Assembly (NCBI GenBank): GCA_035714085.1
Contig: DASTMP010000285.1
Coordinates: 3,659-67,658, forward strand
Reading direction: 5' to 3'
DNA length: 64,000 nucleotides
Source of the DNA: Blastocatellia bacterium
Lineage (GTDB): Bacteria; Acidobacteriota; Blastocatellia; RBC074
Shown here one piece after another: positions 2,659 through 25,997 of the stretch; positions within the stretch are counted from its first letter, which is position 1, and the number at the start of each line of letters is the position of its first letter. The notes under the pieces were generated by a model, which did no database searches, had not been told where the DNA came from, and saw only the letters and a program-made list of their open reading frames with translations. The translations under genes were made by a program, and so were the position numbers.

Positions 2659-2689
2659 TTGACACCTGCCCCGCGCCGGCCTTATACTC
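2659..2689 (+). promoter_or_regulatory. Putative sigma70-type promoter of the blaI-blaR1-like operon
   Basis: TTGACA at 2659-2664, a 17-nt spacer, then TTATAC/TATACT at 2682-2689, about 25 nt upstream of an AGGAGG RBS and the ATG at 2712. Confidence 0.35.
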
Positions 2690-2711
2690 CTAAAAGCTTA
2701 GGAGGAAACTT

Positions 2712-7740: not shown

Positions 7741-8160
7741 TTCTTATTTTCCTTCCGGCATTTTTCCGTCTGGCTTTCTTGCTGGTCAGCGGCGCGGAAA
7801 CGCGATACAGATCAGACAGAAAATGGAGGACAGAAAAATCGAAAAGTTCCTGCTACCTTCCCCGGCTCTTCGTCACTCACCCAGTGTGACGGGCCTCTCG
7901 TCATTCACCGCTTAAGCAAATGTACAACGCTGAGGAAACGATCTCCGTTTTTTGATTCGCGATCAAATTCCGGCTCGAAATACGAAGCGCTATAGCCGCA
8001 TCAGTGGCTTTTCTTCGAACGTTCTCCTCACGGTCAAAGTAAATATGGTTAGCGGCGCGAATTGGCCGAACAGATTTGTGATTGCGACTTCTAGGGCCTC
8101 GCTCACATTCGCGCTCCCCATACAATTAACGGCGCAGCGCGCGTAAGCGAGCGGCGCATC
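7741..8160 (+). repeat. About 420-bp conserved upstream/leader region, copy A (paralogous to 15187..15610)
   Basis: About 80% nucleotide identity to 15187..15610 by eye, including the blocks gatcagacagaaaatgga(g/a)gacagaaaaat, gatctccgttttttgattcgc and cgcgtaagcgagcggcgcatc. Both copies sit immediately 5' of paralogous TPR lipoprotein genes. Confidence 0.6.
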
Positions 8161-8218
8161 CATGCGACCGGCGATTGCTTGCCCGCGCCGTAGCGCGCCA
8201 TTCCGAGGACATCTGGGT

Positions 8219-9157
8219 ATGAAGTTTCATCTTATCGCGAAGACCACGCTCGCTCTGAGTCTTCTCGCGTCGCCTTGTCTGGCTCAGGCGCCGCTCGCCG
8301 CGCGCGATCATTTCAACCGCGGCGATTCGCTCTATCAAAAAGGCGATTTCGAGGGCGCCATCGCCGATTTCACCAAAGCCATCGAGGTCAGCTCGCGTCT
8401 GGACAACCGCAGCGGCGCCGATGATTGGCGCCGCAAGACCGGCGCGGCGTCAAATTTTGACAAAGTCAGAGCGCTCGATCCGCTGACGGCGGCGGCATAC
8501 GCCAACCGCGGGCTGGCGCGTTATCGACTCCGCGATTACGAGGGCGCTATCGCCGACTGCGACCGCGCTATCGCGATCTATCCGCGTCTCCCCGACGCCT
8601 ACAACAATCGCGGCATGGCGCGCCGCGCCATGGGGGATTTCGACCGCGCTATCGCCGATTTCGACCGCGCTATCTCGATCTATCCGAGCGCCGCCGCCTA
8701 CAACAATCGCGGCAACGCATATGTGGATAAGAAAGAGCTTGATCGGGCCCTCGCCGATTTTGACCGCGCCCTCGCGCTCGATCCGCGCCTCGCGTCGGTC
8801 TATTTCAATCGCGGCTTTGCGCGGCGCGATAAAGGGGACAACGATGGCGCAATGAAAGATTTCGACAAGATTATTGCGCTCGATCCGCGTTCCGCCTCGG
8901 GTTACTACGGCCGCGCTGTGGCGCTGTGCGACAAGAATGAATTGGACCGCGCGGTCAATGACTTCAATCGCGCCATCGAACTCGATCCGCGCTATGCTCT
9001 GGCTTACGGGAACCGCGGGCTGGCTTTGCTGCGGCAAGGCAAGGGCGCCGACGCCGAAAAGGATTTCGAGCGCGCCGTCGCGCTTAGGCCGGGATTAAAA
9101 ACGGAACTGGAGTCGGACATCGAGCAAACCAAGAAATGGAGGCGAACGAACCGGTAG
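8219..9157 (+). CDS. TPR-repeat lipoprotein (paralog A)
   Basis: Signal peptide plus lipobox (MKFHLIAKTTLALSLLASPCLAQA), then about 8 TPR units (AYNNRG.A....DYD.AIADFDRAI.LDPR). About 80% aa identity to the 15746..16687 product. Confidence 0.8.
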   Translation: MKFHLIAKTTLALSLLASPCLAQAPLAARDHFNRGDSLYQKGDFEGAIADFTKAIEVSSRLDNRSGADDWRRKTGAASNFDKVRALDPLTAAAYANRGLARYRLRDYEGAIADCDRAIAIYPRLPDAYNNRGMARRAMGDFDRAIADFDRAISIYPSAAAYNNRGNAYVDKKELDRALADFDRALALDPRLASVYFNRGFARRDKGDNDGAMKDFDKIIALDPRSASGYYGRAVALCDKNELDRAVNDFNRAIELDPRYALAYGNRGLALLRQGKGADAEKDFERAVALRPGLKTELESDIEQTKKWRRTNR

Positions 9158-9350
9158 CTACAAACGCGCAAACCTGGATCAAACGACCACAGGAAGATAC
9201 ATCTCTCGCTCTGTTTTTTCTGTCCGGCGTTTTTCCGTCTGGTTCTCTTGCTTTCTGCGGCGCCGTCGGCAAAGATCAGCGGCGCAAAAAGACGGTAAAG
9301 ATCGACATTCGTCAGTTCTGGAGGGGGAGGCGAGGCCATGGCATTGAACT

Positions 9351-10109: not shown

Positions 10110-10291
10110 AATTTTCTCTCCTCGAACTGTAACCTTTAACGCAGTTTGCTTCAGTAAGAAGTGTAATCGTCTTCCATATTCCGTTTTCCATTTTCCGTTT
10201 GTCATGTGTTATTGCGCGTCCTTTTGGTTCCGGCAATGACAAATGTCAAGCGCAAAGTGGAAAACGGAAAATGAAAAAGGAGGGCCATTCG

Positions 10292-11782
10292 ATGACTAAA
10301 TCTGGTCTCTGTCCACGCTGTCAAGGCGCATTAACCGAGGATGCCCCAGCCGGTTTGTGTCCGAAATGTCTGATGGGAATGGCGCTCGAACTCTCGTCCG
10401 AGCCTTCTGAAAGCCTATCAGCCGCGGGGCCAGTCGGCGCGCGCGCCGCGGACGCGACGATCGCTGAGAGCGACCGATCTTTCGGCGATTACGAGTTATT
10501 GGGACGGATCGCGCGCGGCGGGATGGGTGTGATCTACAAGGCGCGGCAGGTCTGTCTAAATCGCGTTGTCGCAGTCAAGATGATGTTGCCCGGACTGCTC
10601 GTCTCCGAAGCCGAAGCGAGTCGATTCCAGAACGAGGCCGAAGTCATCGCCAACCTGCGCCATCCCAATATTGTGGCTGTTCACGAGGTGGGCGCGCACG
10701 ACGGCCAGCGCTATTTCTCGATGGACTACGTCGAGGGGCAAAGCCTGGCCGCGGTCGTCAGAGAACATCCGCTTCCGGCGCGGACCGCGGCCCGCTATGT
10801 CAAGGTGATCGCCGAAGCCATTCATTACGCGCACCAGCAGGGCATTCTGCACCGCGATTTGAAGCCGTCGAACGTGCTGCTGGACAAAGCCGGGAATCCG
10901 CGCATCACCGACTTCGGTCTGGCCAAGCGATTGTCGAGCGATTCGCGGCTGACCGCCACGGGGACGGTGCTGGGCACGCCGAGCTATATGCCTCCGGAAC
11001 AGGCCGACGGCAAAAGCAGACGCACGGGGGCGGCCAGCGACGTCTATTCGATCGGCGCGATCCTTTACGAACTGCTGACAGGTCGCCCGCCGTTTCAAGC
11101 GGCGACACCGCTCGACACCATCCTTCTCGTCATCAACACGGAACCGATCGCGCCGCGAATGCTCAATCCGAAGCTCTCCCGCGATCTGGAGACGATCTGT
11201 TTGAAATGTCTGGAGAAGGACCCGCGCTGGCGATATCAATCGGCGCAGGAGTTGGCTGACGATCTCGACCGCTACCTGAAGCGTGAGCCAATCAAGGCGC
11301 GGCCCATCAGCCTCTTAAACCGCGGCTGGCGCTGGTGCCGGCGTAATCCGTGGCAGACCACGGCCGCCGTCGCTCTGGTCCTGGCGACTTTGATGGCGTC
11401 GCTCTGGGCCATCGCGTCTCAGCGGATAGCGATTATTTCCAGGCAGATTCCCTGGCAATCGTTGTTTGAGCAGGTCCAATCAGGGCGGGTCGCGGGCGAT
11501 CACACGGAGTCGCTCAAGGCGCCGGCCGAGGCTACCCCTGTCAAAAGCCCTGACGGTCGGCTGCTCGCTTCGAGCGGCCAGGATCATCGCACAATTCGAC
11601 TGCTGGAAACCTCGACCGGACGTGAATTGGCCCAATGGGAGGCCCACCGGGTCGGAATTACCGCGTTGGCCTTCAGCCCGGATGGCCGCACACTTGCCTC
11701 CGGAGGCGCGGACGGAACGATGAAGTTGTGGGACCTCTCTTCCATCCGCCGCGAGTTGGGCGGCAAAGAATTTGATCGGTAG
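10292..11782 (+). CDS. Ser/Thr protein kinase with N-terminal zinc-ribbon and C-terminal WD40 repeats
   Basis: AGGAGG RBS 8 nt before the ATG at 10292. The N-terminus is CPRCQGAL...CPKCLMG. Hanks kinase motifs are present: VAVKMM, HRDLKPSNVLL, DFGLAK, SYMPPE. A TM segment follows, then WD40 units (SPDGRLLASSGQDHRTIRL..., SPDGRTLASGGADGTMKLWD). Confidence 0.85.
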   Translation: MTKSGLCPRCQGALTEDAPAGLCPKCLMGMALELSSEPSESLSAAGPVGARAADATIAESDRSFGDYELLGRIARGGMGVIYKARQVCLNRVVAVKMMLPGLLVSEAEASRFQNEAEVIANLRHPNIVAVHEVGAHDGQRYFSMDYVEGQSLAAVVREHPLPARTAARYVKVIAEAIHYAHQQGILHRDLKPSNVLLDKAGNPRITDFGLAKRLSSDSRLTATGTVLGTPSYMPPEQADGKSRRTGAASDVYSIGAILYELLTGRPPFQAATPLDTILLVINTEPIAPRMLNPKLSRDLETICLKCLEKDPRWRYQSAQELADDLDRYLKREPIKARPISLLNRGWRWCRRNPWQTTAAVALVLATLMASLWAIASQRIAIISRQIPWQSLFEQVQSGRVAGDHTESLKAPAEATPVKSPDGRLLASSGQDHRTIRLLETSTGRELAQWEAHRVGITALAFSPDGRTLASGGADGTMKLWDLSSIRRELGGKEFDR

Positions 11783-12497: not shown

Positions 12498-13565
12498 ATG
12501 AAAGCGCGAAGTCGGATTTTCCTATTGACAGTTCTCTTGATCGTATTTTTGTGGCCTAACCAGAAACTAACAGCCTCCACTAGCCAGGCCGAAGCTCAGT
12601 TATCCGCGCCAGTCCGCATTAGCGACGATAACGGCTTCGACGAAGATCCATCGGTATTGCTCGCCCGGGATGGCCGGTTTTACGTGGCTTGGTCGTCGAA
12701 GCGGCAAAGCGGAGTCAATATTTACATCAAGAGTTCAGCGGATGGACAGAACTGGTCCACCGAGGAGCGGGTGACCGGCGGTCCCGGCGAAGACTACTAT
12801 CCCTCCCTTGCGCAGACCAGGGATGGTACGTTTCACATCGCATGGCACCGGCTCGAACGAGCGCAGGCAGACATTGACATTTGGTATTCGCGCTCGCAGG
12901 ATGCGCGAACCTGGTCAGTCCCGGTACAAATCACCACTAGTCCGAAAGTGGAATGGGCGCCCAGCATCCTCGCGGATTCGAGCGACGCTCTACACATCGT
13001 CTGGTCTTCAGGTAAGACTGGCAATCGGGAGCTGTACGAATCCCGGTCTGATGATGGCGGCCTCTGGTGGGCTCCCGAGAGGCAGATCACGCATAGCGCT
13101 GAGGAGGACGATTTCCCTCAGATGATCGAAACACGCCAAGGGGAAAAGATTCTGGCGTGGACGCGGTACCGGCAAGGATCGCTTCTGTGCGACTACATCA
13201 GCGACACCTCGGCTGAGATTGTGATCTCGCGATCGTGGGACGGGTTGAATTGGTCCGTTCCTGAAGTGTCCTCACCGAAGGATGAAAAGTGGCGCCAGAT
13301 GGACTTCCTGCCATTTGTCTTCGAAGACGCCGGCAGCCGACAGTTGTATCTCAGTTGGACATCCTCGCGATCCAATAGCTTGGGCAACATTCTTCTGCGC
13401 AACCTGGCGGCGGAACAGTCAGTTTACAGCCTTCTCACCATCGAGCGGACGAGGGACTACGACGCGAAGATCGCGCCGACTAAAACCCCAGGTCAATATC
13501 TTATGGTATGGGTCTCGGACCGTGAGGGAGCAATAGAGATCTATTCCCGGACTTTTCAACTATAA
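12498..13565 (+). CDS. Secreted BNR-repeat (sialidase-like beta-propeller) protein
   Basis: Signal peptide followed by repeated S-x-D-x-G-x-x-W motifs (SADGQNWS, SQDARTWS, SDDGGLWW, SWDGLNWS). The repeats are spaced as in 6-bladed sialidase/BNR propellers. Confidence 0.65.
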   Translation: MKARSRIFLLTVLLIVFLWPNQKLTASTSQAEAQLSAPVRISDDNGFDEDPSVLLARDGRFYVAWSSKRQSGVNIYIKSSADGQNWSTEERVTGGPGEDYYPSLAQTRDGTFHIAWHRLERAQADIDIWYSRSQDARTWSVPVQITTSPKVEWAPSILADSSDALHIVWSSGKTGNRELYESRSDDGGLWWAPERQITHSAEEDDFPQMIETRQGEKILAWTRYRQGSLLCDYISDTSAEIVISRSWDGLNWSVPEVSSPKDEKWRQMDFLPFVFEDAGSRQLYLSWTSSRSNSLGNILLRNLAAEQSVYSLLTIERTRDYDAKIAPTKTPGQYLMVWVSDREGAIEIYSRTFQL

Positions 13566-13638: not shown

Positions 13639-15186
13639 ATGCAAGACACCCGACGCTTTGCAAAACTCAGTCGCGCTCTCGGTTTGAGAGCGAACACCTG
13701 CCGCTTTTTGATCGGCGCCCTCGTCTTCACTCTGCTGATACCGCTCACGGATTGCAATGTCAAAAAGACTGTTCGATTGGATCCGTCGGAAGTGAAGGAA
13801 CCAGGAAAAGAGAGGATTGTCGGGATCACCACCACCGACGGCCAGGACGTTCGTTTCGATTCGAGCGGGGCTACTGTGAGGGGCGATACGCTCCAGGCAT
13901 CCGTCAACGGAGCGCCGTATCAGATCACTACTAACCGGGTGCAGCGGTTATGGATTGAACGAAAAGAACTGTCGAAGGCGCGCACTATCGGCCTCATCGC
14001 TGGCGTGGCCGCTGGCGTCCTTATCGCGGGTGTGGCCATCGCGCTGGCTACCAAGCAATCCTGTCCCTTCATCTACTCCTGGGATGGCTCGGAGTATGTC
14101 TTCGACGGCGAGCCATACGGCGGCGCGGTTACGCGAGGTCTTGAGCGGGACGATTATTCCGAACTCGAACACCTTCGCGCGGAGAATGGCCTTTATCGTT
14201 TGATGGTCACAAACGAAGTGCCGGAGACGCAGTACACCAACCTGATGGAGCTGCAGGTGGTCGACCATCCGGCGGCGACGCGTGTGGTGGCCGACGAGTG
14301 GGGCGGGTTCCACGTCCTTGCCGAGCCCCAACGCCTGACCTCAGCCAGAGACAATCAGGGACGCGACCTGCTTCCCTGGTTGGTGACGACTGATCGGGTC
14401 ATCTGGGAAGCTCCGCCGGTTCTCGACGCCAACGGCGGCGTGCGACAGGAGATCGTCCTGACTTTTCCGAAGCCGAAGAGAGCGACGCGCGCCAGACTGG
14501 TGGCGAATGTGGCTACCGGGTTGTGGGGATCCGGAATGATCAAAGAGATGCTCAAGTTACGCGGACGTGACCTGGAGTCCTGGTACGCTTCGATGGACAG
14601 CGATCGAACGCAATCCGCCGCCCTCTTCGCATGGATACTCAGAGAAGAGCTGTTTGCGCTCAAGCTCGAAGTCGAAGAACCCGACGGATGGAAACATCGG
14701 GGAACCCTGCCCGGCGGAGGTCCGTTCATCGCCGAAGATCGGGTCGTCGCTCTCGACGTGAGCCGGGCGACGGGTGATCAACTGCGCATCCGAATACGCC
14801 CGCCGGTCGGTTTCTGGGCGCTCAACTCTTTCGCAGTTGATTATGGAGCTGACCAATCGCCGATCGTGGAGAAGGTTCATCCGATAAAGGCCTGGAATGA
14901 CGGAGATCGGGATCTACTGGCCGAACTGTCGAAGACGGATGACGCTTATTACGACATGCCAAACGTAGGCGACCGGGCCTGGGTTAACTTTCCAGCCCCG
15001 CCGCCGCGTCCGGGAATGGAGCGGACCGTCTTCCTGCACAGTAGAGGTTATTATCGGCTTCATCTGACCGGCAGCGGTAACCCAGACCTCGCCACCTTAG
15101 AGCAAATCGGCAATACTCCGGACGCCGCGGCGCGCTTCGCCGTCAAACGATACGGCGAGCGGCGAGTGGCGCAGGCGTCGAAGTGA
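13639..15186 (+). CDS. Hypothetical lipoprotein / membrane-anchored protein
   Basis: GGAGG RBS before the ATG at 13639. Lipobox-like LLIPLTDC, plus an internal TM segment (IGLIAGVAAGVLIAGVAIALA). No recognisable catalytic motif. An in-frame upstream TTG/ATG extends the ORF to 13576. Confidence 0.5.
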   Translation: MQDTRRFAKLSRALGLRANTCRFLIGALVFTLLIPLTDCNVKKTVRLDPSEVKEPGKERIVGITTTDGQDVRFDSSGATVRGDTLQASVNGAPYQITTNRVQRLWIERKELSKARTIGLIAGVAAGVLIAGVAIALATKQSCPFIYSWDGSEYVFDGEPYGGAVTRGLERDDYSELEHLRAENGLYRLMVTNEVPETQYTNLMELQVVDHPAATRVVADEWGGFHVLAEPQRLTSARDNQGRDLLPWLVTTDRVIWEAPPVLDANGGVRQEIVLTFPKPKRATRARLVANVATGLWGSGMIKEMLKLRGRDLESWYASMDSDRTQSAALFAWILREELFALKLEVEEPDGWKHRGTLPGGGPFIAEDRVVALDVSRATGDQLRIRIRPPVGFWALNSFAVDYGADQSPIVEKVHPIKAWNDGDRDLLAELSKTDDAYYDMPNVGDRAWVNFPAPPPRPGMERTVFLHSRGYYRLHLTGSGNPDLATLEQIGNTPDAAARFAVKRYGERRVAQASK

Positions 15187-15610
15187 TTGATGGTCTCATT
15201 TTCCTGTCTGATCTCGTTTCTTTATCAGCCAATCGAATAGATCAGACAGGAAAATGGAAGACAGAAAAATTGAAAAATTCCCGCTATCTTCCCGGCCTCT
15301 TCGCCAAGCGCCCTTTGTGACTGACCTCTTCGCCGTTCACTCATTGAGCTAATGTCCAGCGCCGAGTAAATGATCTCCGTTTTTTGATTCGCTATCACAT
15401 TCTCGCCTGAAATACACAATGAACAGGTCGCATCAGCAGCTTTTCTCCGAACGTTTTCCTCGCCGGCGGAGTAAATATTTTTAGCGGCGCGGATTGGCTG
15501 AACAGACTTGCGATTGCGGCTTGCGGCGGCCTCACTCACATTCGCGCTACCAAAACAATCAACCCACCGGCTCGCGTAAGCGAGCGGCGCATCACGCGAC
15601 CAATGCCCGC
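15187..15610 (+). repeat. About 420-bp conserved upstream/leader region, copy B (paralogous to 7741..8160)
   Basis: See copy A. Copy B has an extra about 110 bp before the start codon, which contains a perfect-stem hairpin at 15680..15729. Confidence 0.6.
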
Positions 15611-15745
15611 TTACCCAGGCCGTAGTGCGCCATTACGTGGAGTCGTTCATTCTGCGGTGAGCGACGCCATAAAAGAATGAAACCTCGCCAAGTAGGCGCC
15701 GAATAATTTCGGCGTCTACTTGGCGAGGTTTCGGAGGAGCTGGGT

Positions 15746-16687
15746 ATGAAACTTCACCTTATCGCGAAGGCTGCGATAGCTCTGAGTCTTCTTGCGTCGC
15801 CTTGTCTGGCTCAGGCTCCGCCCGTCGCGCATGATCATTTCGCCCGCGCGGGGTCGCGTTACCAGAAAGGCGATTTCGAGGGCGCGATCGCCGACTTCAC
15901 CAAAGCCATCGAGATCAGCTCGCGTCTGGACAACCGCCAACGCGGCGATGATTGGCGCCACGAGACCGGCGCGGCGTCGAATTTTGACAAGGTCAGAGTA
16001 CTCGATCCGCTGGCGGCGGCGGCATACGCAAATCGCGGGCTGGCGCGTTATCAACTCCGCGATTACGAGGGCGCTATCGCCGACTGCGACCGCGCGATCG
16101 CGATCAATCCGCGTCTCAGCGTCGCCTACAACAATCGCGGCATCGCGCGCTACGCCTTGGAAGATTACGACCACGCGATCGCCGATTTCGACCGCGCGAT
16201 CGCGATCGATCCGCGTGACGCTGAGACCTATAACAATCGCGGCAACGTATATGTGGATAAGAAAGAGCTTGATCGGGCCCTCGCCGATTTCGACCGCGCC
16301 CTCGCGCTCGATCCGCGCCTCACGTCGGTCTATTTCAATCGCGGCTTTGCGCGGCGCGAGAAAGGGAACGACGATGGCGCGTTGAAGGATTTCGACAAGG
16401 CTATCGCGATCGATCCGCGCTTCGCTTCGGGATACTACGGCCGCGCGGTGGCTCTGTGCGACAGGAATGAATTGGACCGCGCGATCAATGACTTCAATCG
16501 CGCCATCGAACTCGATCCGCGCTATGCTCTGGCTTACGGGAACCGCGGGCTGGCTTTGCTGCGACAGGGCAAGGACGCCGAAGCCGAAAAGGATTTCGAG
16601 CGCGCCGTCGCGCTCAGGCCGGAATTGAAGGCGGAACTGGAGTTGAACGTCGAGAGAGCCAAGAAATGGAGGCAAACGAATCGCTGA
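15746..16687 (+). CDS. TPR-repeat lipoprotein (paralog B)
   Basis: MKLHLIAKAAIALSLLASPCLAQA signal/lipobox. Same TPR architecture as 8219..9157, with near-identical N- and C-terminal thirds. Confidence 0.8.
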   Translation: MKLHLIAKAAIALSLLASPCLAQAPPVAHDHFARAGSRYQKGDFEGAIADFTKAIEISSRLDNRQRGDDWRHETGAASNFDKVRVLDPLAAAAYANRGLARYQLRDYEGAIADCDRAIAINPRLSVAYNNRGIARYALEDYDHAIADFDRAIAIDPRDAETYNNRGNVYVDKKELDRALADFDRALALDPRLTSVYFNRGFARREKGNDDGALKDFDKAIAIDPRFASGYYGRAVALCDRNELDRAINDFNRAIELDPRYALAYGNRGLALLRQGKDAEAEKDFERAVALRPELKAELELNVERAKKWRQTNR

Positions 16688-16901
16688 ATCGATCATTCGC
16701 CGCGCTTGCTTCGAAATAGTTGAGAGACTATATTACGCCACGTCATTGACCTCTTGAGGCAATGACACTGAACACGTTCCCATCAGAAAGCGCCCCTCAC
16801 CGGAACACGATCCCCCTACCAGAACTTGACACCCGCAGATAACCTGATTATCTGTCAGATGACATCAGCCTGTCGCAGTTGACATAAAGGAGGACTGCCC
16901 T

Positions 16902-18194
16902 GTGAGAACTCGAATTCTGATCATAATTATTGCGCTGGCCGCCCTTCTCCCAGGTTGTGGGGGGAAGTTTCAAATCGGGCCGCTGCCGTCTCCGCCGCAG
17001 CTGCCACCGGTCATCAAGGACGAATTAGTGACGAACGTCGGCGCGCCTACCGCTATCGCCTTTACGCCCGACGGGAGGTTATTGATCACGACCCAGAGCG
17101 GGCAATTACGCGTCTACCAGAACGGAAATCTGCTGGGCGCGCCGGCGCTCGACTTGAGCAGCCGAGTTTGCGCCAACAGCGAACGCGGGCTGCTTGGCGT
17201 CGCTATAGATCCGGATTTTGCGAACAATAATTTCATCTACCTCTACTACACCTTCAATAAGTTCGCGACTTGTCCGACCGGACAACCGACCAATGCGCTT
17301 AACCCGGTCAACCGGGTCTCCCGATTCATCTTCGGCGGCGACAACCTCGTCATCCCGGGGAGCGAGATCGTACTCATTGATAATATTCTCTCGCCCAACG
17401 GCAACCACAATGGAGGAGACCTGCAATTCGGCAAGGACGGATTCCTTTACGTCAGCGTCGGCGACGGCGGCGCTGACTACGCGGGCGACAGCGGTGGAGG
17501 CGGGGCGAATGACGCGGCGCGCGACAGGAATGTGTTACTCGGCAAGATCCTGCGCATCACGCGTGACGGTCTCATCCCGCCGACCAATCCTTTCCAGGGG
17601 GCGAATAGCGCGCGATGCAACACGACCGGCATGACGATGGCGGGTAATTCGTGCCAGGAGACTTTCGCCTGGGGCTTGCGCAATCCGTTTCGCCTCGCTT
17701 TCGATCCGAACGCCGCCGTAACCAGGTTCTTCATCAACGACGTCGGCCAAAGCGCCTGGGAAGAGATTGATGAGGGAATTTCGGGCGCCGATTACGGATG
17801 GAACATTCGCGAAGGGCCTTGCGCCAACGGCTCAACGACTAACTGCGGCCCGCAGCCCTCCGGGTTGACCAACCCGATCTTCGCCTACCAACATACCAGC
17901 GACTGCGGCGCAACCGGAGTCGCTGGCAATTCGATCACCGGCGGCGCGTTCGTGCCGAGGGGCGTATGGCCGGCCCAATATGAAGGCGCCTACCTGTTTG
18001 GCGAGTTCATTTGCGGAAAGATATTTCAACTGTCGCCGAACGGCGCCGGCGACTTTACGGCGAGCGAATTCAGGACGGGGCTGGGCTCCAGCAGCGCCGT
18101 GACTATGATCTTTGGTCCACACCAGAACACGCAGGCGCTTTACTACACGACCTTTGCGGGCGGCGGTCAGGTGCGCCGCATAAGCATTAATTGA
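16902..18194 (+). CDS. PQQ-dependent soluble sugar (glucose/sorbosone) dehydrogenase-family beta-propeller lipoprotein
   Basis: Lipoprotein signal (LLPGCGG). Family motifs GLLGVAIDPDF, NHNGGDLQFGKDGFLYVSVGDGG, GLRNPFRLAFDP, GADYGWN. Confidence 0.8.
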   Translation: MRTRILIIIIALAALLPGCGGKFQIGPLPSPPQLPPVIKDELVTNVGAPTAIAFTPDGRLLITTQSGQLRVYQNGNLLGAPALDLSSRVCANSERGLLGVAIDPDFANNNFIYLYYTFNKFATCPTGQPTNALNPVNRVSRFIFGGDNLVIPGSEIVLIDNILSPNGNHNGGDLQFGKDGFLYVSVGDGGADYAGDSGGGGANDAARDRNVLLGKILRITRDGLIPPTNPFQGANSARCNTTGMTMAGNSCQETFAWGLRNPFRLAFDPNAAVTRFFINDVGQSAWEEIDEGISGADYGWNIREGPCANGSTTNCGPQPSGLTNPIFAYQHTSDCGATGVAGNSITGGAFVPRGVWPAQYEGAYLFGEFICGKIFQLSPNGAGDFTASEFRTGLGSSSAVTMIFGPHQNTQALYYTTFAGGGQVRRISIN

Positions 18195-18419
18195 CCGGTT
18201 ATGCGGGCTTTCATATGTATGAAGACTATTAGGCGCCGCAGGACACCGCAGAGCAATGAAGGAATTCTCCGTGTTCTGCGGCGCCTATTCGTCCAGATGA
18301 AAACCGCTGTAGATTTTCGCGATGCCCCACGATTTGGTGAGAGGTGTTTGTGCGTTCATCGCTGTATCTGGCATTCATTGGAGTGAGTGTGCCCAGAGAG
18401 GCCATGAGCGACCCGCCAC

Positions 18420-19900
18420 CCCTGATGGCATAGCGGAGTCCTCGGAGCGGAGCCGGTGTGGGCGAGCGCAATACTATTACTCGCGTTCGCAGCGCCTTCT
18501 CTTCCGAATTTTTCTGTTTTATCGACTGGCCGATTGTGGTATAAGTGAAACGACCTGATGAAAGGCACCAGCCCCTCATCAAGTCTCACCAACGAGCACA
18601 ATGATTGAGGCATTGCACACGATGGCTCATTCTGAAGATACCACAATCAAGACTTTCGAGTTCAAGCTTCGCATCAACAAAGCCTTTGTCGAAACCATCG
18701 AGCGCGAGCTTGAACATTCCCGCCAAATCTACAACGCCGCTCTTGCCGAGCGGATCTCTTGTTACCGGATCACGGGCGCATCCCTCGGTTACAGTGAGCA
18801 ATCGCGCCACCTGACTGAAGCTCGCGACTTGCCAGAAGTAAAGAATCATTTGCGGGCAATCCAGCAAGACGCCCTTGAACGTCTCGACGAAGCTTTCGAG
18901 GGCTTCTTTCGGCGCGTTCGGAATGGAGAGAAGCCGGGATTCCCCAGATTCAAGGGCAAAGACCGCTATCACACCTTCTCGCAAAAATATGAGAAGGTTC
19001 GACCCTGCCCGATCAAAGGCGACAAACTTACGGTTCCGGGCGTTGGCACATGTCGCGTCCGGCTCTCCCGCCCGATTGAAGGACAATGCAAACAGCTTCG
19101 GATCACACGCCGTGTTGACGGCTGGTATGCTTTGATTGTTTGCGAGGCGCACAAACCTGATCCATTGCCGCCGACCGGACAGACCGTCGGAGTAGATGTC
19201 GGCATTAGCAGTTTCGCCACGCTCTCGAACGGCGAAGAGATTGAGAATCCGCGCCATCTCAAGAGCGCGCTGGAGAACCTGCAAAGACAGCAGCGGCGAC
19301 TTTCGCGCAGACAGAAGGGATCGAAGCGGCGCGCGAAGCAGAGAATCAAAGTGGCCAAGGCGCATTTGAAAGTCTCGCGCTGTCGCAAGGATTTTCACCA
19401 CAAGGTATCTCGCGATCTGGTCAGGCGTTTTGACGCAATCACGGTCGAGGATTTGAACATCCGCGGGATGGTCAAGAATCGCCGTCTCGCCCGAGCAATC
19501 AGCGACGTAGCCTGGGGGCGCTTTTTCACGATGACGAAAGGCAAAGCTGAGAACGCTGGCCGGACGTTTGAAAGAGTGGACCCAAGATACACTAGCCAGA
19601 TTTGCAGCAACTGCGGCCACCGACAAAAGATGCCGCTAGCCGTTCGTGTATACGAATGCGGCAAGTGTGGATTTGTAATAGGCCGTGATCATAACTCTGC
19701 AATCACGATCGATAGGGCTGGGCAAGCCCGAATCAACGCCCGTGGAGAGCGACAGCGTTCAATGAAGCGGGAACACGTTAGCAGAACTCAGTTGGAACCC
19801 CGGCAGGGTGGGAACTGAGCGCTATTTCTGCGAACGCGACGCCAACTTTCTATTCAATCAGCCGGTGATCGACGCGCGCAAGCCGCTGAAATCAATGTCC
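18420..19900 (+). mobile_element. IS200/IS605-family tnpB-only insertion sequence (IS1341-like); ends not resolved
   Basis: A full-length TnpB gene with no tnpA (Y1 transposase) gene nearby. The flanking 200-400 bp non-coding segments are placed as the LE/RE and the omegaRNA region. The boundaries are estimates. Confidence 0.35.
18601..19818 (+). CDS. tnpB: TnpB (OrfB) RNA-guided endonuclease of an IS200/IS605-family element
   Basis: RuvC-I (VGVDVGISSF), RuvC-II (ITVEDLNIRGM), a zinc finger (CSNCGH...CGKCGF) and RuvC-III (IGRDHNSAITI). Length about 400 aa, typical of TnpB. Confidence 0.85.
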   Translation: MIEALHTMAHSEDTTIKTFEFKLRINKAFVETIERELEHSRQIYNAALAERISCYRITGASLGYSEQSRHLTEARDLPEVKNHLRAIQQDALERLDEAFEGFFRRVRNGEKPGFPRFKGKDRYHTFSQKYEKVRPCPIKGDKLTVPGVGTCRVRLSRPIEGQCKQLRITRRVDGWYALIVCEAHKPDPLPPTGQTVGVDVGISSFATLSNGEEIENPRHLKSALENLQRQQRRLSRRQKGSKRRAKQRIKVAKAHLKVSRCRKDFHHKVSRDLVRRFDAITVEDLNIRGMVKNRRLARAISDVAWGRFFTMTKGKAENAGRTFERVDPRYTSQICSNCGHRQKMPLAVRVYECGKCGFVIGRDHNSAITIDRAGQARINARGERQRSMKREHVSRTQLEPRQGGN

Positions 19901-20037
19901 ACCTTCTGGCGCAACGCCAATGCTTGACCATTAAGCCACGGTTGATCGATGATTCGCCCGGCTCGAATCGGCAAGCAGCCGTCAACGTCCGATTCGTTCC
20001 TGTTTTAAACCGGTAAACGCGATTCGGATTTAACGCC

Positions 20038-20706
20038 ATGCCTTTAGCCAAAAAAACACAAACCTGGATCAAGCGACCGCAGGAAGATAAGTTCCTCGAT
20101 CTGATGGTACAGAGCGAGATGCGCGTCTGGTCAATAAGCGGGCCGGGCGGAGCCGGAAAATCCAGCCTACTTCAGAAGTTTCTGGAGCATTGCAAAGCGC
20201 AGGAGGTTCCCGCATTGCTGCTAGATCCGTCGAAAGAAACGACCGATCATGCGACAACCGTTCTGAGCAATCTGCATTCGGTCTCAGCCGCAAATTTCAA
20301 GACCACGCAGGAAAAACTCAGCGAGATGTATCGCAGCGCAACCGCCATCGCCGGAGAATACGCTCCGCAGGCCGAAAACGCCTGGGCGTTGCTGCAACAG
20401 GCCGAAGAGGACAAAAACCTTGGCCTGGTTCTTTCGACTGTCAAAGGGTTGGCCAAGCTCGGCTATCAGGCGTACAAATCCGAAGAGATGCAGCGGCTCA
20501 AGAAGCTTGCGCAATCGCCCGAAGAGTCGCTCTGGCGCGCCTTCAAAGAAGACGTTGAGAACAAAAAGCATGGCGTGATCCTGATCGACACTTACGAAAA
20601 GTCGGTTTCGGCGCAATGGCGCAGCCGGTTGCGATTCGCCCAGGATGGGGATTTCAGCACGCCGCAGGGGAAATATGAGGATCGGCCTTATCAATTCAGA
20701 GAGTAG
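20038..20706 (+). CDS. STAND/AAA-type P-loop NTPase, N-terminal portion, ending at an in-frame TAG
   Basis: Walker A (ISGPGGAGKSSLLQKF) and Walker B (HGVILIDTYEK). The TAG at 20704-20706 is in the same frame as the 1035-aa TPR ORF starting 36 nt downstream. Confidence 0.6.
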   Translation: MPLAKKTQTWIKRPQEDKFLDLMVQSEMRVWSISGPGGAGKSSLLQKFLEHCKAQEVPALLLDPSKETTDHATTVLSNLHSVSAANFKTTQEKLSEMYRSATAIAGEYAPQAENAWALLQQAEEDKNLGLVLSTVKGLAKLGYQAYKSEEMQRLKKLAQSPEESLWRAFKEDVENKKHGVILIDTYEKSVSAQWRSRLRFAQDGDFSTPQGKYEDRPYQFRE

Positions 20707-20742
20707 ATCGGGGGGATAGCCAACTTCTTCAATGACGCGCCC

Positions 20743-23700
20743 GTGTTGATGGTCTTTGCCGGACGAGTGCCGAAGGTTCAGGAGTTGGGTATGATCGAGC
20801 CGAAATTCTTTCTCAAGCCAGCGCAGGCCGTTCCGTTCGACGACGCCGAAATCAGTGAATTCTTCCGCCAATACCTGCTTGATGAATTCACGCAGCCTGG
20901 CGCGGATGTCGTCGCCAATGTCCAACAGGTGACGCACGGCAACCCGTTTTTGGTCGAGCGTCTGGCTCGGTTGATCGCGCTCGAAAGGCAGGAAGACCCT
21001 TCGTGGGACTGGTCGCGGTGGGAAGCCACTTGCGGCCATTTCCAGAGCGATGATCGCTATGGGTTGCTGTTGTACGTCACCGAAAGGCTGGCTACGCACA
21101 TACAGCCCGGCGACGAAGATTACTGGAGACTAGCGCTACCCCGTTTGCTTCACCGCGACATGGCCGAGATTCTCTTCCCGCGACAAGAGGGCAAACCGCT
21201 CTTCGGTACCTGCTTGATCGAAGCCTACGAACAGGCCGGGATAATCTACCGGCGCGCCGCGGGCGCTCCCGACGAGTACCTGTTGCCGGACGAAACCCGC
21301 AGTGCGCTCACGGCAAAAGCCCGTCGCGAAGGGTTATTACAGAGCGAGGTTGCAAGCGATCTTCATTCACGGCTTGCGCAATATTTCGACACCAATTACA
21401 GAATCGAGAATGAGTCCTTAATCAAGTCCGAAGTGGAGGGGCGGTCGCTGAACAAAGATCACCCCGCGCTCATTGAGTCCGCCTACCACATTGTTATGAG
21501 CTATGTTCCCAGCCGCCAGGAGAAGAACAGAATTGATCCGGAGCGATTCTGGCGATCAATGGCAGGCTCGATCTCGCTGAATAATTTGGACAAGAAGGTT
21601 AACGCCGCCAGGTTGAGCGGTATGTCTCAATCCGATCTCGAACAACTTTTGAAAGGCTTTGACGAAGAGGCCGAACGCCTCGATAAACAGATATCATTCC
21701 AGGTCGGCGAGGAACTACGTGAGTTGGGGCGCGCAGGACGGTTGGTTACAGGATGGGCAAACAGCCCCAATTTTTTTCAGGAAAGGATCAAAGAATCCAA
21801 TCACAAAGCCTTCTGGTTAGGTCAATACGCGGCATTCCTCACAATCCCTAAGCGTGACAATGACGAAGCCGAGCGATACTACAAGCTCGCCATCGAGGCC
21901 GATCCGAACCACGCAAACAACCTGGGCAACTACGCGGCGTTCCTTATGAACCATCGGCGCGACAATGGCAGGGCCGAGCACTTCTTCAAGCTGGCCGTTG
22001 AGGCTGACCCGAACGATGCGAATCACCTCGGCAACTACGCATGGTCTCTTGTAAAGAATCGGCGTGACAATGACGAAGCCGAGCGATACTACAAGCTCGC
22101 CATCGAGGCCGACCCGAACCACGCAAACAACCTGGGCAACTATGCGGCGTTCCTTATGAACCACCGGAGCAACTATGACAGGGCCGAGCGATATTACAAG
22201 CTCGCCGTCGAGGCTGACCCGGACCACGCAAACAACCTCGGCAACTACGCGGTGTTTCTTGAGAAGAATCGGCATGACAATGGCGAAGCCGAGCGATTCC
22301 ACAAGCTCGCCATCGAGACTGATCCGAGCCACGCAAACAACCTCTGCAACTACGCGACGTTCATTGTGAAGAATCGGCGTGACAATGACGAGGCCGAGCG
22401 CTTCTTCAAACTCGCCGTCGAGGCTGATCCCTATAATGTAAACAGCCTCCGCAACTACGCGCTTTTCTTTGAGAAGAATCGGCGTGACTACAACGAGGCC
22501 GAGCGATACTATAAGCTTGCCATCAAGGCTGACCCGAAGGACGCCCGCAACCTCGGCGACTACGCAGCGTTCCTTATGAACCATCGGTGTGACAATGACG
22601 AAGCCGAGCGATACTACAAGCTCGCCGTCGAGGCCGACCCGAACCACGCAAAAATCCTCTGTAACTACGCGCTGTTCTTTGAGAACAATCGCCGTGACTA
22701 TGACGAGGCCGAGCGATACTACAAGCTCGCCGTCGAGGCCGATCCGAACTATGCAAAAATCCTCGGTACCTATGCGGCATTCCTTATGATCCATCGGCAT
22801 GACAATGGCGAAGCCGAGCGGTTCTACAAGCTCTCCGTCGAGGCTGACCCGAACGACGCGAACAGCCTCGGCAACTACGCGGTGTTCCTTGAGAAGTATC
22901 GGCATGGCTACGACGAGGCCGAGCGATACTACAAGCTCGCCATCAATGCCGACCCGAACCACGCGAACAATCTCGGCAACTACGCGGTGTTCTTTGAGAA
23001 GAATCGGCGTGACTACAACGAGGCCGAGCGATACTATAAGCTCGCCGTCGAGGCCGACCCGAACCACGCCCGTAATCTCGGCAACTATGCAGCGTTCCTT
23101 ATGATCCATCGGCGCGACAATGACGAGGCCGAGCACCTCTTCGAGCGCGCCATCGAGGCCGACCCGAACAGCGCGAACAACCTCGGCAACTACGCGGTGT
23201 TCCTTGAGAACAATCGCCGCGATAATGGAGAGGCCGAGCGATACTACAAGCTCGCCATCAAAGCTGCACCGAACGACGCACACTGGCTCGGTGCCTATGC
23301 GTTGTTCCTTAAGAAGAATAGACGTGACGATAAGGAAGCCGAGCGATACCACAAGCTAGCCGTCGAGGCTGACCCGAACGATGCCCTCTGGCTCAGCGGG
23401 TATGCGGTTTTTCTACAAGCTCAACGTGGAAACTATGACGAAGCCGAACGATTCTACCGCCAGGCTATAGCTTTGAACCCGGCTGACGCGAATTCGCGTG
23501 GTAACTTTGCTCAGATTTTGTTGGCGCAAGGGCGGAAGGAAGAGGGCAGAGAAATGATCGCCGCCTCGTTTGACGCGTTAGCCGACAACATCTCGCCCGG
23601 ATTGTTGCCGGAGCTTTGGTTCTATCGTTACGCCCATTTTGGGAGCGGGTGGCCGGCGGCTCTATCGGAATTGAAGAAGGTTTTGCTTGCCGGGGATCGT

Positions 23701-23850
23701 TCGCCAGGTTGGAGTCTGCAACCGAACATAGAGCGGGCCGAAGTCGATAGGCATCCGAACGTCGCGTTGCTGAAGACGCTCGCCCGCGTAATCAACGAAG
23801 AGGCTGGGATAGAGGAGTTGGAGGTTGACCCTGAATGGCGCGCGGCATGA
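20743..23850 (+). CDS. C-terminal portion of the same STAND NTPase (sensor/arm region) followed by a long TPR array
   Basis: Begins ...NFFNDAPVLMVFAGRVP. This is the continuation expected after a Walker B, and it is in frame with 20038..20706. About 20 near-identical TPR-like 40-aa units follow (AERYYKLAVEADPNHANNLGNYAVFLEKNRRDYDE). Confidence 0.6.
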   Translation: MLMVFAGRVPKVQELGMIEPKFFLKPAQAVPFDDAEISEFFRQYLLDEFTQPGADVVANVQQVTHGNPFLVERLARLIALERQEDPSWDWSRWEATCGHFQSDDRYGLLLYVTERLATHIQPGDEDYWRLALPRLLHRDMAEILFPRQEGKPLFGTCLIEAYEQAGIIYRRAAGAPDEYLLPDETRSALTAKARREGLLQSEVASDLHSRLAQYFDTNYRIENESLIKSEVEGRSLNKDHPALIESAYHIVMSYVPSRQEKNRIDPERFWRSMAGSISLNNLDKKVNAARLSGMSQSDLEQLLKGFDEEAERLDKQISFQVGEELRELGRAGRLVTGWANSPNFFQERIKESNHKAFWLGQYAAFLTIPKRDNDEAERYYKLAIEADPNHANNLGNYAAFLMNHRRDNGRAEHFFKLAVEADPNDANHLGNYAWSLVKNRRDNDEAERYYKLAIEADPNHANNLGNYAAFLMNHRSNYDRAERYYKLAVEADPDHANNLGNYAVFLEKNRHDNGEAERFHKLAIETDPSHANNLCNYATFIVKNRRDNDEAERFFKLAVEADPYNVNSLRNYALFFEKNRRDYNEAERYYKLAIKADPKDARNLGDYAAFLMNHRCDNDEAERYYKLAVEADPNHAKILCNYALFFENNRRDYDEAERYYKLAVEADPNYAKILGTYAAFLMIHRHDNGEAERFYKLSVEADPNDANSLGNYAVFLEKYRHGYDEAERYYKLAINADPNHANNLGNYAVFFEKNRRDYNEAERYYKLAVEADPNHARNLGNYAAFLMIHRRDNDEAEHLFERAIEADPNSANNLGNYAVFLENNRRDNGEAERYYKLAIKAAPNDAHWLGAYALFLKKNRRDDKEAERYHKLAVEADPNDALWLSGYAVFLQAQRGNYDEAERFYRQAIALNPADANSRGNFAQILLAQGRKEEGREMIAASFDALADNISPGLLPELWFYRYAHFGSGWPAALSELKKVLLAGDRSPGWSLQPNIERAEVDRHPNVALLKTLARVINEEAGIEELEVDPEWRAA
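21817..23400 (+). repeat. About 13 tandem, highly similar 120-bp coding repeats (TPR units)
   Basis: The unit gacaatgacgaagccgagcgatactacaagctcgccatcgaggccgacccgaaccacgcaaacaacctcggcaactacgcg... recurs every 120 bp with few substitutions. The antisense 511-aa ORF at 21817..23352 is an artefact of this array. Confidence 0.7.
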
Positions 23851-24104
23851 CAAATTCGGGGCGAATAGTTGAGAACGTGTGCCAAGTTTTTGCGGTGCAG
23901 TGGAAATAATCCAGGGTACGCATTGCTTCCAGCGTGCTTTTGCCAAAAGACCAACTTCTTTTCAATCAGCCTCTTTCCGAGAGCACGCTAGAAGCGATGC
24001 GTACCCAGGGCAGGCGCAAAACTATGACGCGCCCCCAGTTGTTGAAGACGGGCCGGATCATTACACTATGCCGACATTTTCGGCCCCCCCGAAAGGATTT
24101 GTGG

Positions 24105-25997
24105 ATGTTGTTAAAGGTTTCGATTCTCTGTCTCCGGGTGGCAAAAAAATCTCTCTTCTTTGCTTCCCTTCTTTTCCTTCTCTTCATCTTGCCGGCGACG
24201 AACGCAGTCGCGCCTCCTTCATCGCCGTGGTCTGCGAAATTCGATGGCAAAGTCTATTTTCACCAGACAACCGAGCTTGGCGCGTTGATCGTCGGAACTG
24301 AAAAATCGCTCTACGCCGTGGACGGCGAAACGGGCGAAGTGTTGTGGCGTCGCAAGGACGTTCGGTTGGACGAATCGGACGTCGCGCCAGTCGTCGGCAC
24401 CGACCTGCTTCTGCTCAGCTACGAGAAAGGCGGGAAAACCCGCGTAGAGGCAGTAGATCTGATGGCGGGCAATACGTTGTGGCGCAGCGATAAGATCAAA
24501 GGCGGCGTGATGCAGATGGCTGTCGATCCGGAGAACGATCTGGCCGCTGTCGTTTTCGTTCGTGACGCTAAGGCCGGGCCGAGAGAGGGCTTCAAACGAC
24601 GCCCGTCGATCCATCTGCTGAACCTGGCCACGGGCGACGAGTTGTGGAAGCGCGATCTGGAGAGCGAGGTCGAGATGACGCCTGCCCGGTGGAACGGAGA
24701 CGGCGACGAGACCTTCTACACGCTCGACAATTACCGCGCGCCGTTTTTCCTGGACGGCCGGTTGTGGCTCTTTTACGAAGGCGTGACCTCGCTGGACGCT
24801 CGTACGGGCAAAGAGGGAATCAGAGAGAAGTTTCGCGTCAATGAAGAAGGATTGGCGTTGACCGAAGCCGATCCGGTCATTGACGCGCGGAATATTTATG
24901 TGTCGGGGCGCGGGCAGGTTCGAGCGATCTCTCGCGCGACCGGGCGCGAGGCCTGGGAAGCGAAAGACCTTGGGTTAACGCCGGAGATGATTCTGGCGAG
25001 CGGTCTGCTTTTTGTCCGAACCGGCGGCCGGTTCACGCGATTGAAAGACGGCGAGGTCGTAGAACGCGGGCCTTACGGCGTCAGCGCGATTGATCCGTCG
25101 AACGGAAAAATCCTCTGGCGTTATCGCGGCGCAGACAAAGGCATCTCCAACATCGCGCTGGCCGACGCTTCAACAGCGCTCGTCGCCGACCACGACGAGT
25201 TGATCGCGATCGACAAGTCGAGCGGCAAGGTCGTCAAACGTCTGAAACACCGCATCGACCGCGCCGCCTTCGTCCTGATCAACGAAGAGAGGCAGGCCGT
25301 TGTCGGCGGGCGCAATGAGATCGCGGGGTTCGACGTCGCTCGCGGCGAGGCTGTCTGGCGCGTCCGTCACGACCCGCCGGGGCGCGGGGTTCTGCGAACT
25401 GTCGGGTCGATCACGGCTCGCGCCGCCTCGATTTATTTTCGCTACGGCGGGGTCGCGACGACCGCCTTTCGCGGCGTTCAACTCGCGCGCGGCGTGAGCG
25501 CGCTCCGGTGGTCGGGAGTGGCTTCGCGCGCGGTTATGCCGAACCTGACCGATTACGCCGCCGGCGCCGCGCGGGAATATGTTACGTCACAAATAAAAGG
25601 CTACGGCGTCATCTCGCGCGCCGACCTCGCGCGCCGGGCGGTCGGCGCGGCGCAGTCGCAGACGATCTCGGCGCAAATTTCAGTCAACGTCGACGTCGAT
25701 GTCGAGGATAGGTTGATGGATCGGCTCGATCCCTCACGCCAACTCGACAAACTGTCGCGCTTTCTGTGGCGGCGACAACAACTGGCCGCCCTGCGCGGCC
25801 AGTTTATGTATTTTTACACCGAGTTGAAGCCAGAAGGCGGGCGAGGATTGGCAGGCGTCAATCTGAACACGGGCCAGACGGAGCGGGCAGTCGCGTTGGA
25901 TGACCTCGATTACCGGTTCTCAAATGACGAGATCGCCGAGCTGATTTACGTCGCGAAAGATAATCGTTTGACGGCCCACAAGATCATCTCGCGTTGA
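24105..25997 (+). CDS. Secreted PQQ-like (BamB-type) beta-propeller repeat protein
   Basis: Signal peptide from the ATG at 24105. The motif G-(E/N/D)-x-LW(R/K) recurs about every 40-60 aa (GEVLWRR, GNTLWRS, GDELWKR, GREAWEA, GKILWRY, GEAVWRV). In-frame upstream extension to 23934 is possible. Confidence 0.7.
   Translation: MLLKVSILCLRVAKKSLFFASLLFLLFILPATNAVAPPSSPWSAKFDGKVYFHQTTELGALIVGTEKSLYAVDGETGEVLWRRKDVRLDESDVAPVVGTDLLLLSYEKGGKTRVEAVDLMAGNTLWRSDKIKGGVMQMAVDPENDLAAVVFVRDAKAGPREGFKRRPSIHLLNLATGDELWKRDLESEVEMTPARWNGDGDETFYTLDNYRAPFFLDGRLWLFYEGVTSLDARTGKEGIREKFRVNEEGLALTEADPVIDARNIYVSGRGQVRAISRATGREAWEAKDLGLTPEMILASGLLFVRTGGRFTRLKDGEVVERGPYGVSAIDPSNGKILWRYRGADKGISNIALADASTALVADHDELIAIDKSSGKVVKRLKHRIDRAAFVLINEERQAVVGGRNEIAGFDVARGEAVWRVRHDPPGRGVLRTVGSITARAASIYFRYGGVATTAFRGVQLARGVSALRWSGVASRAVMPNLTDYAAGAAREYVTSQIKGYGVISRADLARRAVGAAQSQTISAQISVNVDVDVEDRLMDRLDPSRQLDKLSRFLWRRQQLAALRGQFMYFYTELKPEGGRGLAGVNLNTGQTERAVALDDLDYRFSNDEIAELIYVAKDNRLTAHKIISR

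Follow-up and report, generated by a model that had tools for sequence, protein, structure and literature searches.

A segregating amber allele interrupts a STAND-like ATPase-TPR gene in wild Blastocatellia

STAND NTPases with tetratricopeptide repeat (TPR) sensors, including MalT/AfsR-type proteins and NACHT/NB-ARC relatives, are the closest described counterparts of the gene considered here; their motif patterns were reportedly laid out by Leipe, Koonin and Aravind in 2004. The gene lies in a 64,000-nt stretch of DNA (hereafter the window) from a soil Blastocatellia bacterium (GenBank assembly GCA_035714085.1, contig DASTMP010000285.1, positions 3,659 to 67,658), where it is interrupted by one in-frame TAG. 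Like those systems, it encodes a Walker A motif, a Walker B motif of the hhhhD form, an hhhhxGRxP strand that parallels the TSRP motif of NACHT or the TTR motif of NB-ARC, a helical domain with a GNP motif, and a TPR array. Unlike them, it has a ~90-residue helical insertion between Walker A and B, reminiscent of the position of the HslU I-domain, a private C-terminal domain and a TPR unit of 35 rather than 34 residues, and it lacks an N-terminal effector or DNA-binding domain. As an interrupted gene it resembles bacterial nonsense pseudogenes and segregating loss-of-function alleles, in that one substitution replaced a conserved sense codon with a stop, the same population contains an intact allele that is otherwise identical, truncation costs essential catalytic and sensor parts, and relatives carry independent inactivating lesions. 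It departs from them in that the nonsense allele is the commoner one in available assemblies and shows no secondary decay yet, and in that a related lineage carries a parallel Tyr-to-TAG change 10 codons away. Programmed readthrough and amber suppression likewise involve an in-frame UAG beyond which the frame stays open, here for 1,047 codons; in contrast to such systems, the present stop is unconserved, has no stimulatory context or structure, is accompanied by no suppressor tRNA that we could see, and belongs to a codon that is an ordinary terminator nearby.

Two collinear open reading frames (ORFs) on the plus strand, 20038..20706 and 20743..23850, share one frame and together make a single gene of 1,270 sense-equivalent codons (3,813 nt). 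The 222-codon ORF that starts at ATG 20038 is closed by the amber codon at position 223, and the 1,035-codon ORF that starts at GTG 20743 terminates at TGA 23848-23850; under a two-ORF reading the 12 intervening sense codons fall outside both products. A preliminary description of this DNA had proposed same-frame halves of about 1,270 codons separated by one TAG and 12 sense codons, with both Walker motifs 5' of the stop and LMVFAGRVP and the TPRs 3' of it, and this layout was borne out by re-reading the sequence, by the coordinates and by homologues collinear across the junction. Its estimate of about 20 TPR units should read 16 units of 35 residues, and the GTG that it took as an annotated start is indeed the first start codon after the stop but is preceded by no Shine-Dalgarno-like sequence. 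A six-frame scan of the window for stops flanked on both sides by open stretches of at least 120 codons returned this TAG as the only one between two same-frame stretches (229 and 1,047 codons). Because the junction is unique in 64 kb and homologues align straight across it, the split reflects more than chance. The two ORFs are halves of one gene, and their annotation should be that of one pseudogene or nonsense allele; neither a pair of proteins nor a recoding event describes them. Existing annotations treat them separately: the 5' product is identical to NCBI HEU0177605.1 (exact-sequence look-up; MAG TPA: hypothetical protein [Blastocatellia bacterium], MAG denoting a metagenome-assembled genome), and JGI calls the 3' ORF 'PilF' or 'TPR protein'.

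The ancestral state of codon 223 was unambiguous. Searching with the fused N-terminal 593 residues recovered 10 database relatives of 34-100% identity, and every relative that covers the site has tyrosine, in the context FREYIGG among close relatives and LMDYCAG, LLDYCAG or FTEYLAR at 34-37% identity; in the family alignment Tyr223 is an invariant column, tyrosine being kept by relatives with as little as 33% identity. At the DNA level the codon reads TAC in contigs L001, L002-L004, L008, L009, L010 and L021, and TAG in the window. Contig L001, the source of the 100%-identical protein P0001, and the window differ at eight positions in ~12 kb outside the repeat array; the only one within the gene (array aside) is 20706, C in L001 and G in the window, and the remaining seven comprise two synonymous and five intergenic changes. 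Contig L021 (JGI 3300036826) encodes P0014, a continuous 1,270-aa protein in the same cluster as HEU0177605.1, and aligns without gaps to window positions 15038-25168 (10,131 bases) with seven mismatches, a single one of which, again TAC versus TAG at 20706, falls in the 3,813-nt gene. The event is thus a single C-to-G transversion at 20706 that changed the Tyr223 codon TAC to amber TAG, and the stop is derived, because orthologues and the sister allele carry TAC/Tyr at this codon. The suggestion of a fresh nonsense mutation and recent pseudogenization therefore stood, with two amendments. The variable base is the third position of the codon, 20706, and not 20704, and the G6 run at 20710-20715, 4 nt 3' of the stop and previously suspected as an error-prone context, is unchanged in the TAG allele, the TAC allele and the orthologues of the lineage. 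With identical runs in both alleles and no indels, slippage in G6 was ruled out as the cause. Nor are the orthologues uniformly split genes with a real ribosome-binding site for the second part; they are overwhelmingly single genes.

The nonsense mutation is a genuine variant, widespread and recent, that segregates alongside the uninterrupted form of the gene in a natural Blastocatellia population. A protein identical to the 222-aa product is recorded in NCBI (the Blastocatellia MAG), JGI/IMG and Logan, and the 222-aa ORF and the 3' ORF are called together on at least nine contigs from approximately eight samples or runs, namely JGI metagenomes 3300036841, 3300036857, 3300036835, 3300041948, 3300056388 and 3300043331, the Logan-assembled SRA runs SRR11613358 and SRR11615275, and the NCBI MAG. 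A haplotype table places TAG in no fewer than three flanking contexts, those of the window, of L015/L017 and of L016, which means that one read set assembled repeatedly cannot account for these contigs. TAC, the intact state, was found in two samples, JGI 3300036826 and 3300037153. Outside the array, nine sequences of the gene had one further variable site (23632, Ala/Ser, with Ser in L015), so that the seven TAG sequences among them hold one nonsynonymous single-nucleotide polymorphism (SNP), a diversity too low to give power on secondary decay. No further stops or frameshifts were found in the window allele. A literature search for comparable metagenomic nonsense polymorphisms returned nothing directly relevant. 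In this way public metagenome assemblies can stand in for read pile-ups, the same stop on several haplotypes ruling out error.

The position of the stop in the predicted fold bears on function. An AlphaFold model of residues 1-516 had an overall predicted local distance difference test (pLDDT) score of 62, with 75-93 over residues 10-100 and 160-330. Its order is strand 29-34, Walker A and helix 39-54, strand 59-62, the helical insertion 85-176, the Walker B strand 179-183, a hairpin 193-219, helix 220-230 and strand 236-241 (VLMVFA), which is followed by the invariant G242, R243 and P245. Tyr223 lies near the start of helix 220-230, placing the stop between the Walker B and AGRxP strands of one alpha/beta domain. 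The 222-residue product is without the sensor-1-like strand, the helical domain, the TPR array and the C-terminal domain, and a C-terminal fragment begun at GTG 20743 or ATG 20749 would be without Walker A and B. Since the stop splits one alpha/beta domain between core strands, neither fragment is expected to be a working ATPase. Inspection of the sequence revealed no purine-rich Shine-Dalgarno motif before GTG 20743 or ATG 20749 and no promoter-like site between TAG and the 3' ORF. The intact gene is considered functional because pairwise ratios of nonsynonymous to synonymous substitution (dN/dS) among intact orthologues are 0.22-0.36.

We consider the window gene to be a young segregating nonsense allele, or very young pseudogene, that has probably lost its function, with a probability of roughly 0.8. 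On this reading, ribosomes would stop at codon 223 in the middle of the ATPase fold and release a 222-residue protein that, ending before the sensor-1-like strand, would be inactive. The 3.1-kb remainder, which has neither a ribosome-binding signal nor a promoter signal to itself, could be started only past the lost helix and without either Walker motif, and is presumably not expressed independently; at most, trace amounts of full-length protein might arise through ordinary near-cognate misreading of UAG. Several observations weigh against this reading. None of the TAG contigs shows damage to the 3' ORF, leaving no positive sequence sign of decay, and with a population diversity near 0.05% decay is not yet expected, so that the sequence cannot separate a dead gene from one still in use. 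The TAG allele is in the majority (~9 contigs versus 2), a share that a deleterious mutation would not usually reach, and the independent Tyr-to-TAG change 10 codons away leaves room for selection or for tolerated leaky expression. Finally, the missing Shine-Dalgarno motif at the 3' ORF is weak evidence, as the gene's own ATG also has no obvious one.

That second change was found in contigs L002-L004, from three JGI samples, whose gene is ~80% identical to that of the window. They have an in-frame TAG at Tyr213 (TAT to TAG), 10 codons 5' of the window's stop, and keep TAC at 223; P0006, the protein called on these contigs, begins at MVFAGR. In L002 (JGI 3300051096) AGG additionally replaces the ATG start (L002:2920-2922 versus L003:3290-3292). 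L003 and L004, identical to each other, keep ATG, and L002 differs from them by ~0.3% overall. No intact counterpart of the TAG213 lineage was found, and its dN/dS did not differ from that of intact lineages, a comparison of low power. When all 505 single-base changes that create a stop in the gene were enumerated, tyrosine codons formed the largest class (134/505), and the chance of two independent stops falling within 10 codons was 1.6% gene-wide and 6-8% within the ATPase head only. Targeted mutagenesis of the kind driven by diversity-generating retroelements was rejected on inspection for both Tyr-to-TAG changes: on the coding strand they are C-to-G and T-to-G, which is not adenine-specific, and no reverse transcriptase lies nearby.

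More distant relatives also carry lesions in the head. At 42% identity, L007:6001-7527 (MAG MFD00905.bin.3.287, uncultured Gammaproteobacteria) has a +1 frameshift at the codon of residue 237 (ATT-AC-TGG for ATT-ATG-G) and a -1 frameshift near residue 440, and could be either a real pseudogene or the product of assembly indel errors. In L022:1-2961 (Logan SRR22388185) the N-terminal part is in another frame and the Walker B segment is missing, and L023:960-3550 (ENA ERZ23491050), a family member preceded by an ORF with a SMEK_N domain, keeps only profile positions 7-60 and 225-473, with 61-224 deleted. The window itself adds a short remnant, 27 residues at 9151-9231, of a second copy. The ATPase head of this family would thus seem to be inactivated often, perhaps through relaxed selection or cost, and its inactivation appears to be tolerated or favoured. 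A truncation that leaves an active head without its sensor is probably harmful, in which case surviving lesions would concentrate in the head; ascertainment of broken relatives is, moreover, biased toward cases with a surviving long TPR ORF.

One conceivable explanation is selection, in which switching the head off, or throttling it through leaky decoding of UAG that restores tyrosine, would have been repeatedly favoured. If the amber allele were selected, this would explain why TAG outnumbers the intact allele over many soil samples and haplotypes, why a sister lineage underwent its own Tyr-to-TAG change, and why distant relatives have head-specific lesions with the TPR part still open. A costly STAND-type sensor would then be naturally polymorphic in wild Acidobacteria populations, with on and off (or high and low) forms both maintained, and only in that case would head inactivation be of moderate biological importance. 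We regard selection for the amber allele as unlikely.

Functional readthrough or suppression, in which UAG would be decoded at a useful rate (for example as Tyr), perhaps as a favoured attenuation of a costly sensor ATPase, is quite improbable. UAG can occasionally be misread by near-cognate tRNAs, tRNA-Tyr among them, and insertion of Tyr would give back the wild-type protein. Further in its favour, two independent Tyr-to-TAG alleles 10 codons apart are both common in the assemblies, the 3' ORF has stayed open in every TAG contig, and the Tyr213-TAG lineage, with pairwise dN/dS of 0.22-0.35, is indistinguishable from intact lineages. Against these points, the stop is derived (TAC being ancestral) and not conserved among relatives, and the 3' contexts of the two stops differ (TAG-A versus TAG-G). 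TAG is moreover a normal terminator that closes 12 of the 61 long ORFs in the window, and the six-frame scan found no second long-ORF/TAG/long-ORF junction in the 64 kb, a normal pattern of stop usage that excluded general reassignment of TAG; the TGA and TAA junctions that it returned were antisense or overlapping shadows. A candidate second in-frame amber, the TAG that ends a Pfam-supported Ser/Thr kinase gene (10199..11782), was rejected as the frame downstream is broken, non-coding and not WD40-like. A tRNA search detected only Leu-CAG in the window and no tRNA in 14 related loci, hence no CUA anticodon, a result that says nothing about other parts of the genome. The RNA past the stop has no stimulatory structure (minimum free energy -27.7 versus a shuffle mean of -31.4, z = +1.17). 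The lost start codon in L002 and the frameshifts and deletions in other members fit decay and not regulation. The readthrough site raised in the preliminary description thus found no support in sequence context, and a nonsense allele remains the preferred account.

A functional split gene would be a two-chain ATPase-TPR protein, formed by the N-terminal fragment and a C-terminal fragment reinitiated at GTG 20743 or ATG 20749. On every TAG contig gene callers report two ORFs, the start codons lie only 12-14 codons past the stop, and the next start in the TAG213 lineage is the same ATG. However, the break falls inside one alpha/beta domain, and neither chain would contain residues 223-235/237, which make up most of helix 220-230 and include two invariant positions, A228 and D233. 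The 3' ORF also lacks an SD-like or promoter-like signal before it, among the 184 family representatives those spanning the region are almost all single chains, and an intact allele coexists in the same population. These features make a split gene very improbable.

Sequencing or assembly error, by which the true base at 20706 would be C and the gene intact in this genome, has next to no plausibility. The window does come from a MAG, an otherwise identical intact allele exists, and a G6 run stands just downstream; but the identical 222-aa ORF emerged independently from three or more pipelines (NCBI TPA MAG, JGI and Logan) and on different flanking haplotypes, the change is a substitution and not an indel beside an equal G6, and the other differences between the alleles are silent, as in a real polymorphism. 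Pyrrolysine or other programmed recoding, suggested by the in-frame TAG itself, has a negligible chance of being correct, given that orthologues and the sister allele have Tyr and no conserved TAG, that TAG is widely used as a stop, that neither tRNA-Pyl nor another CUA tRNA was found (an Rfam scan of the window returned tRNA-Leu only), and that no structured element follows the codon.

The coordinates of the gene's features are collected in Table 1.

Table 1. Features of the interrupted ATPase-TPR gene and its upstream region; positions are those of the window, residues those of the fused protein.
Feature	Position	Strand	Description
Sigma-70-like promoter match	19924..19953	+	~85 nt 5' of ATG; consensus match only, the sole one near the gene
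5' fragment	20038..20706	+	222 codons and TAG: strand 1, Walker A, ~90-residue helical insertion, Walker B, hairpin
Walker A GPGGAGKS	20140..20163	+	Residues 35-42; G35, G38, G40, K41 invariant (family alignment)
Walker B strand GVILIDTYE	20572..20598	+	Residues 179-187; L182, I183, D184, T185, E187 invariant
Premature amber	20704..20706	+	TAC (Tyr) in the intact allele and all close orthologues; variable base 20706
12 sense codons IGGIANFFNDAP	20707..20742	+	Most of core helix 220-230; coding-conserved in all orthologues
3' fragment	20743..23850	+	GTG first start, ATG 20749 too; AGRxP strand, GNP helical domain, TPR array, C-terminal domain
Core strand LMVFAGRVP	20746..20772	+	Residues 237-245; sensor-1-like hhhhxGRxP; M238, V239, A241, G242, R243, P245 invariant
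THGNPFLVE	20932..20958	+	Residues 299-307; T299, G301, N302, P303, L305, E307 invariant
TPR array	21844..23523	+	16 units, each exactly 35 residues (residues 603-1162)
C-terminal domain	23524..23850	+	Conserved, non-repeat (ELWFYRYAHF ... NIERAE.D.HPNVALL), ends at the natural TGA

Orthologous loci share ~120-185 nt of conserved sequence upstream of the gene, and the promoter match falls within it. Tandem Repeats Finder described the array as 14.6 copies of a 105-nt period at 21852-23379, and the C-terminal domain had no Pfam match.

The gene belongs to a small family, with 184 representatives at E <= 1e-3 (40 at E <= 1e-30) among 1.84 billion, most of which span the whole 511-position profile in one chain. 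In a scan of genome contigs, Thiothrix, Gallionella and gammaproteobacterial MAGs proved to encode orthologues, all of them distant. The P-loop core (GPGGAGKS at 35-42 and VILID at 180-184) is invariant, as are G242, R243 and P245 of LMVFAGRVP and GNP at 301-303, their equivalence to STAND motifs being drawn from published motif descriptions only. GNP is presumably the GxP-type motif found in the helical domain after a STAND NTPase core. No Pfam STAND or AAA model reached its gathering score on the ATPase part (NPHP3_N 24.7 versus 24.8, AAA_16 20.5 versus 32.6, nSTAND_NTPase5 20.5 versus 34), and the sub-threshold matches were all to P-loop STAND/AAA models (AAA_22, AAA_16, NPHP3_N, nSTAND5, and NACHT in one member). 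The TPR part matched Pfam TPR_17 (E = 2e-55) over 16 TPR-like units. Foldseek gave probabilities of ~1.0 to MalT, Avs4, NLRP2 and NRC2 and equally high ones to HslU, ORC and RFC; template modelling (TM) scores were only 0.2-0.35 for a model of overall pLDDT 62, the best matches being HslU, ORC/Cdc6, MalT, Avs4, NLRP2 and plant NLRs. A sequence search of the PDB found nothing significant, and NCBIfam returned generic TPR matches and no informative family. No effector or other domain was detected beyond NTPase and TPR, the P-loop starting at residue 35. The earlier label of STAND-NTPase-TPR gene thus held at the level of motifs, as a STAND-like P-loop NTPase with TPRs, and not at the level of a Pfam STAND model at threshold; we class its product as a new, uncharacterized protein of the STAND-like ATPase-TPR type that lacks an effector domain. 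Together these data document a small, uncharacterized family, marked by 35-residue repeats and by helices inserted between Walker A and B, in which the head has been repeatedly inactivated in nature. The strict 35-residue (105-nt) repeat, as opposed to the canonical 34, has the unit xDPxxAxxLGNYAxFL...RxDYDxAERxYKxA, which recurs in remote members of the family, for example P0009 and P0057.

Frequent inactivation is typical of costly defence genes, and defence NTPases share parts with this protein. Avs proteins and the PADLOC mad8 model of MADS combine a P-loop ATPase head with a TPR-like sensor, and Avs4 was among the fold matches. Unlike Avs-type antiviral STAND proteins, the present protein has no N-terminal effector domain (nuclease, protease, TIR or similar), and unlike MADS, it is not part of a multi-gene cluster with a methyltransferase and partner genes. 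PADLOC on P0001 returned a partial mad8 match (E = 1.5e-8, residues 26-198, profile positions 25-174 of 314) and none on P0009. No MADS cluster or other defence genes adjoin the window gene, whose neighbours encode a TPR protein, a GSDH protein, TnpB and a PQQ propeller, and in Gallionella and gammaproteobacterial MAGs the distant orthologues are surrounded by housekeeping genes, including those of glycogen metabolism. With only a partial mad8 match and no cluster, membership of a defence system was not supported.

The tnpB gene (18601-19818, plus strand) lies ~220 nt 5' of the ATPase-TPR gene and encodes a full-length protein of 405 aa with OrfB_IS605 and Cas12f1-like TNB domains (NCBIfam guided_TnpB, E = 4e-89). 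It is an IS200/IS605-type insertion that, judged by comparison of loci, is specific to the window lineage, because the orthologous position is empty in L008, L010 and L003; in L008, the GSDH gene directly precedes the ATPase-TPR orthologue. The insertion is present in both TAG and TAC alleles and was discarded as a cause of the stop. JGI gene calls miss tnpB, reporting an antisense 346-aa ORF and an 80-aa fragment in its place.

Further 5', the Ser/Thr kinase gene that ends in TAG (11780-11782) encodes only ~2 WD40 repeats and is followed by ~700 nt without a convincing ORF before the next gene, a BNR/sialidase-like one at 12498..13565; the propeller part of the kinase may have been truncated or lost. 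The TPR-protein gene at 8147..9157 (plus strand) is an 89% DNA paralogue of another TPR gene at 15707..16687, and after it a 27-residue remnant, VATNAQTWIKRPQEDTSLALF, at 9151-9231 resembles the N-terminus of the ATPase-TPR protein. From sequence comparison, 8147-9231 looks like a decayed second copy of a pair formed by a TPR gene and an ATPase-TPR gene, an arrangement kept in L010. In L009 (Ga0137375_10061609), the first 445 codons of the orthologue occur twice, inverted, at 414-1748 (minus) and 2271-3605 (plus) with identical scores, which is probably a palindromic (hairpin) assembly artefact.

Array length also varied among contigs. In L001 (TAC), and in L015 and JGI 3300043331 (both TAG), the TPR array is exactly 10 units (1,050 nt) shorter, with the same junction in both alleles at a 22-nt exact repeat, CGCCATCGAGGCCGACCCGAAC (window 22098-22119 = 23148-23169). 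Both lengths were found with both alleles, reflecting recombination, recurrent deletion or a short-read assembly shortcut. Downstream, within the PQQ/BamB-like propeller gene (23934..25997), L001 (TAC) and L016 (TAG) share a cluster of 30 SNPs in ~750 nt (25169-25916, ~4% divergence) preceded by 1.8 kb of identical sequence, and this cluster looks like a recombination tract from a diverged strain.

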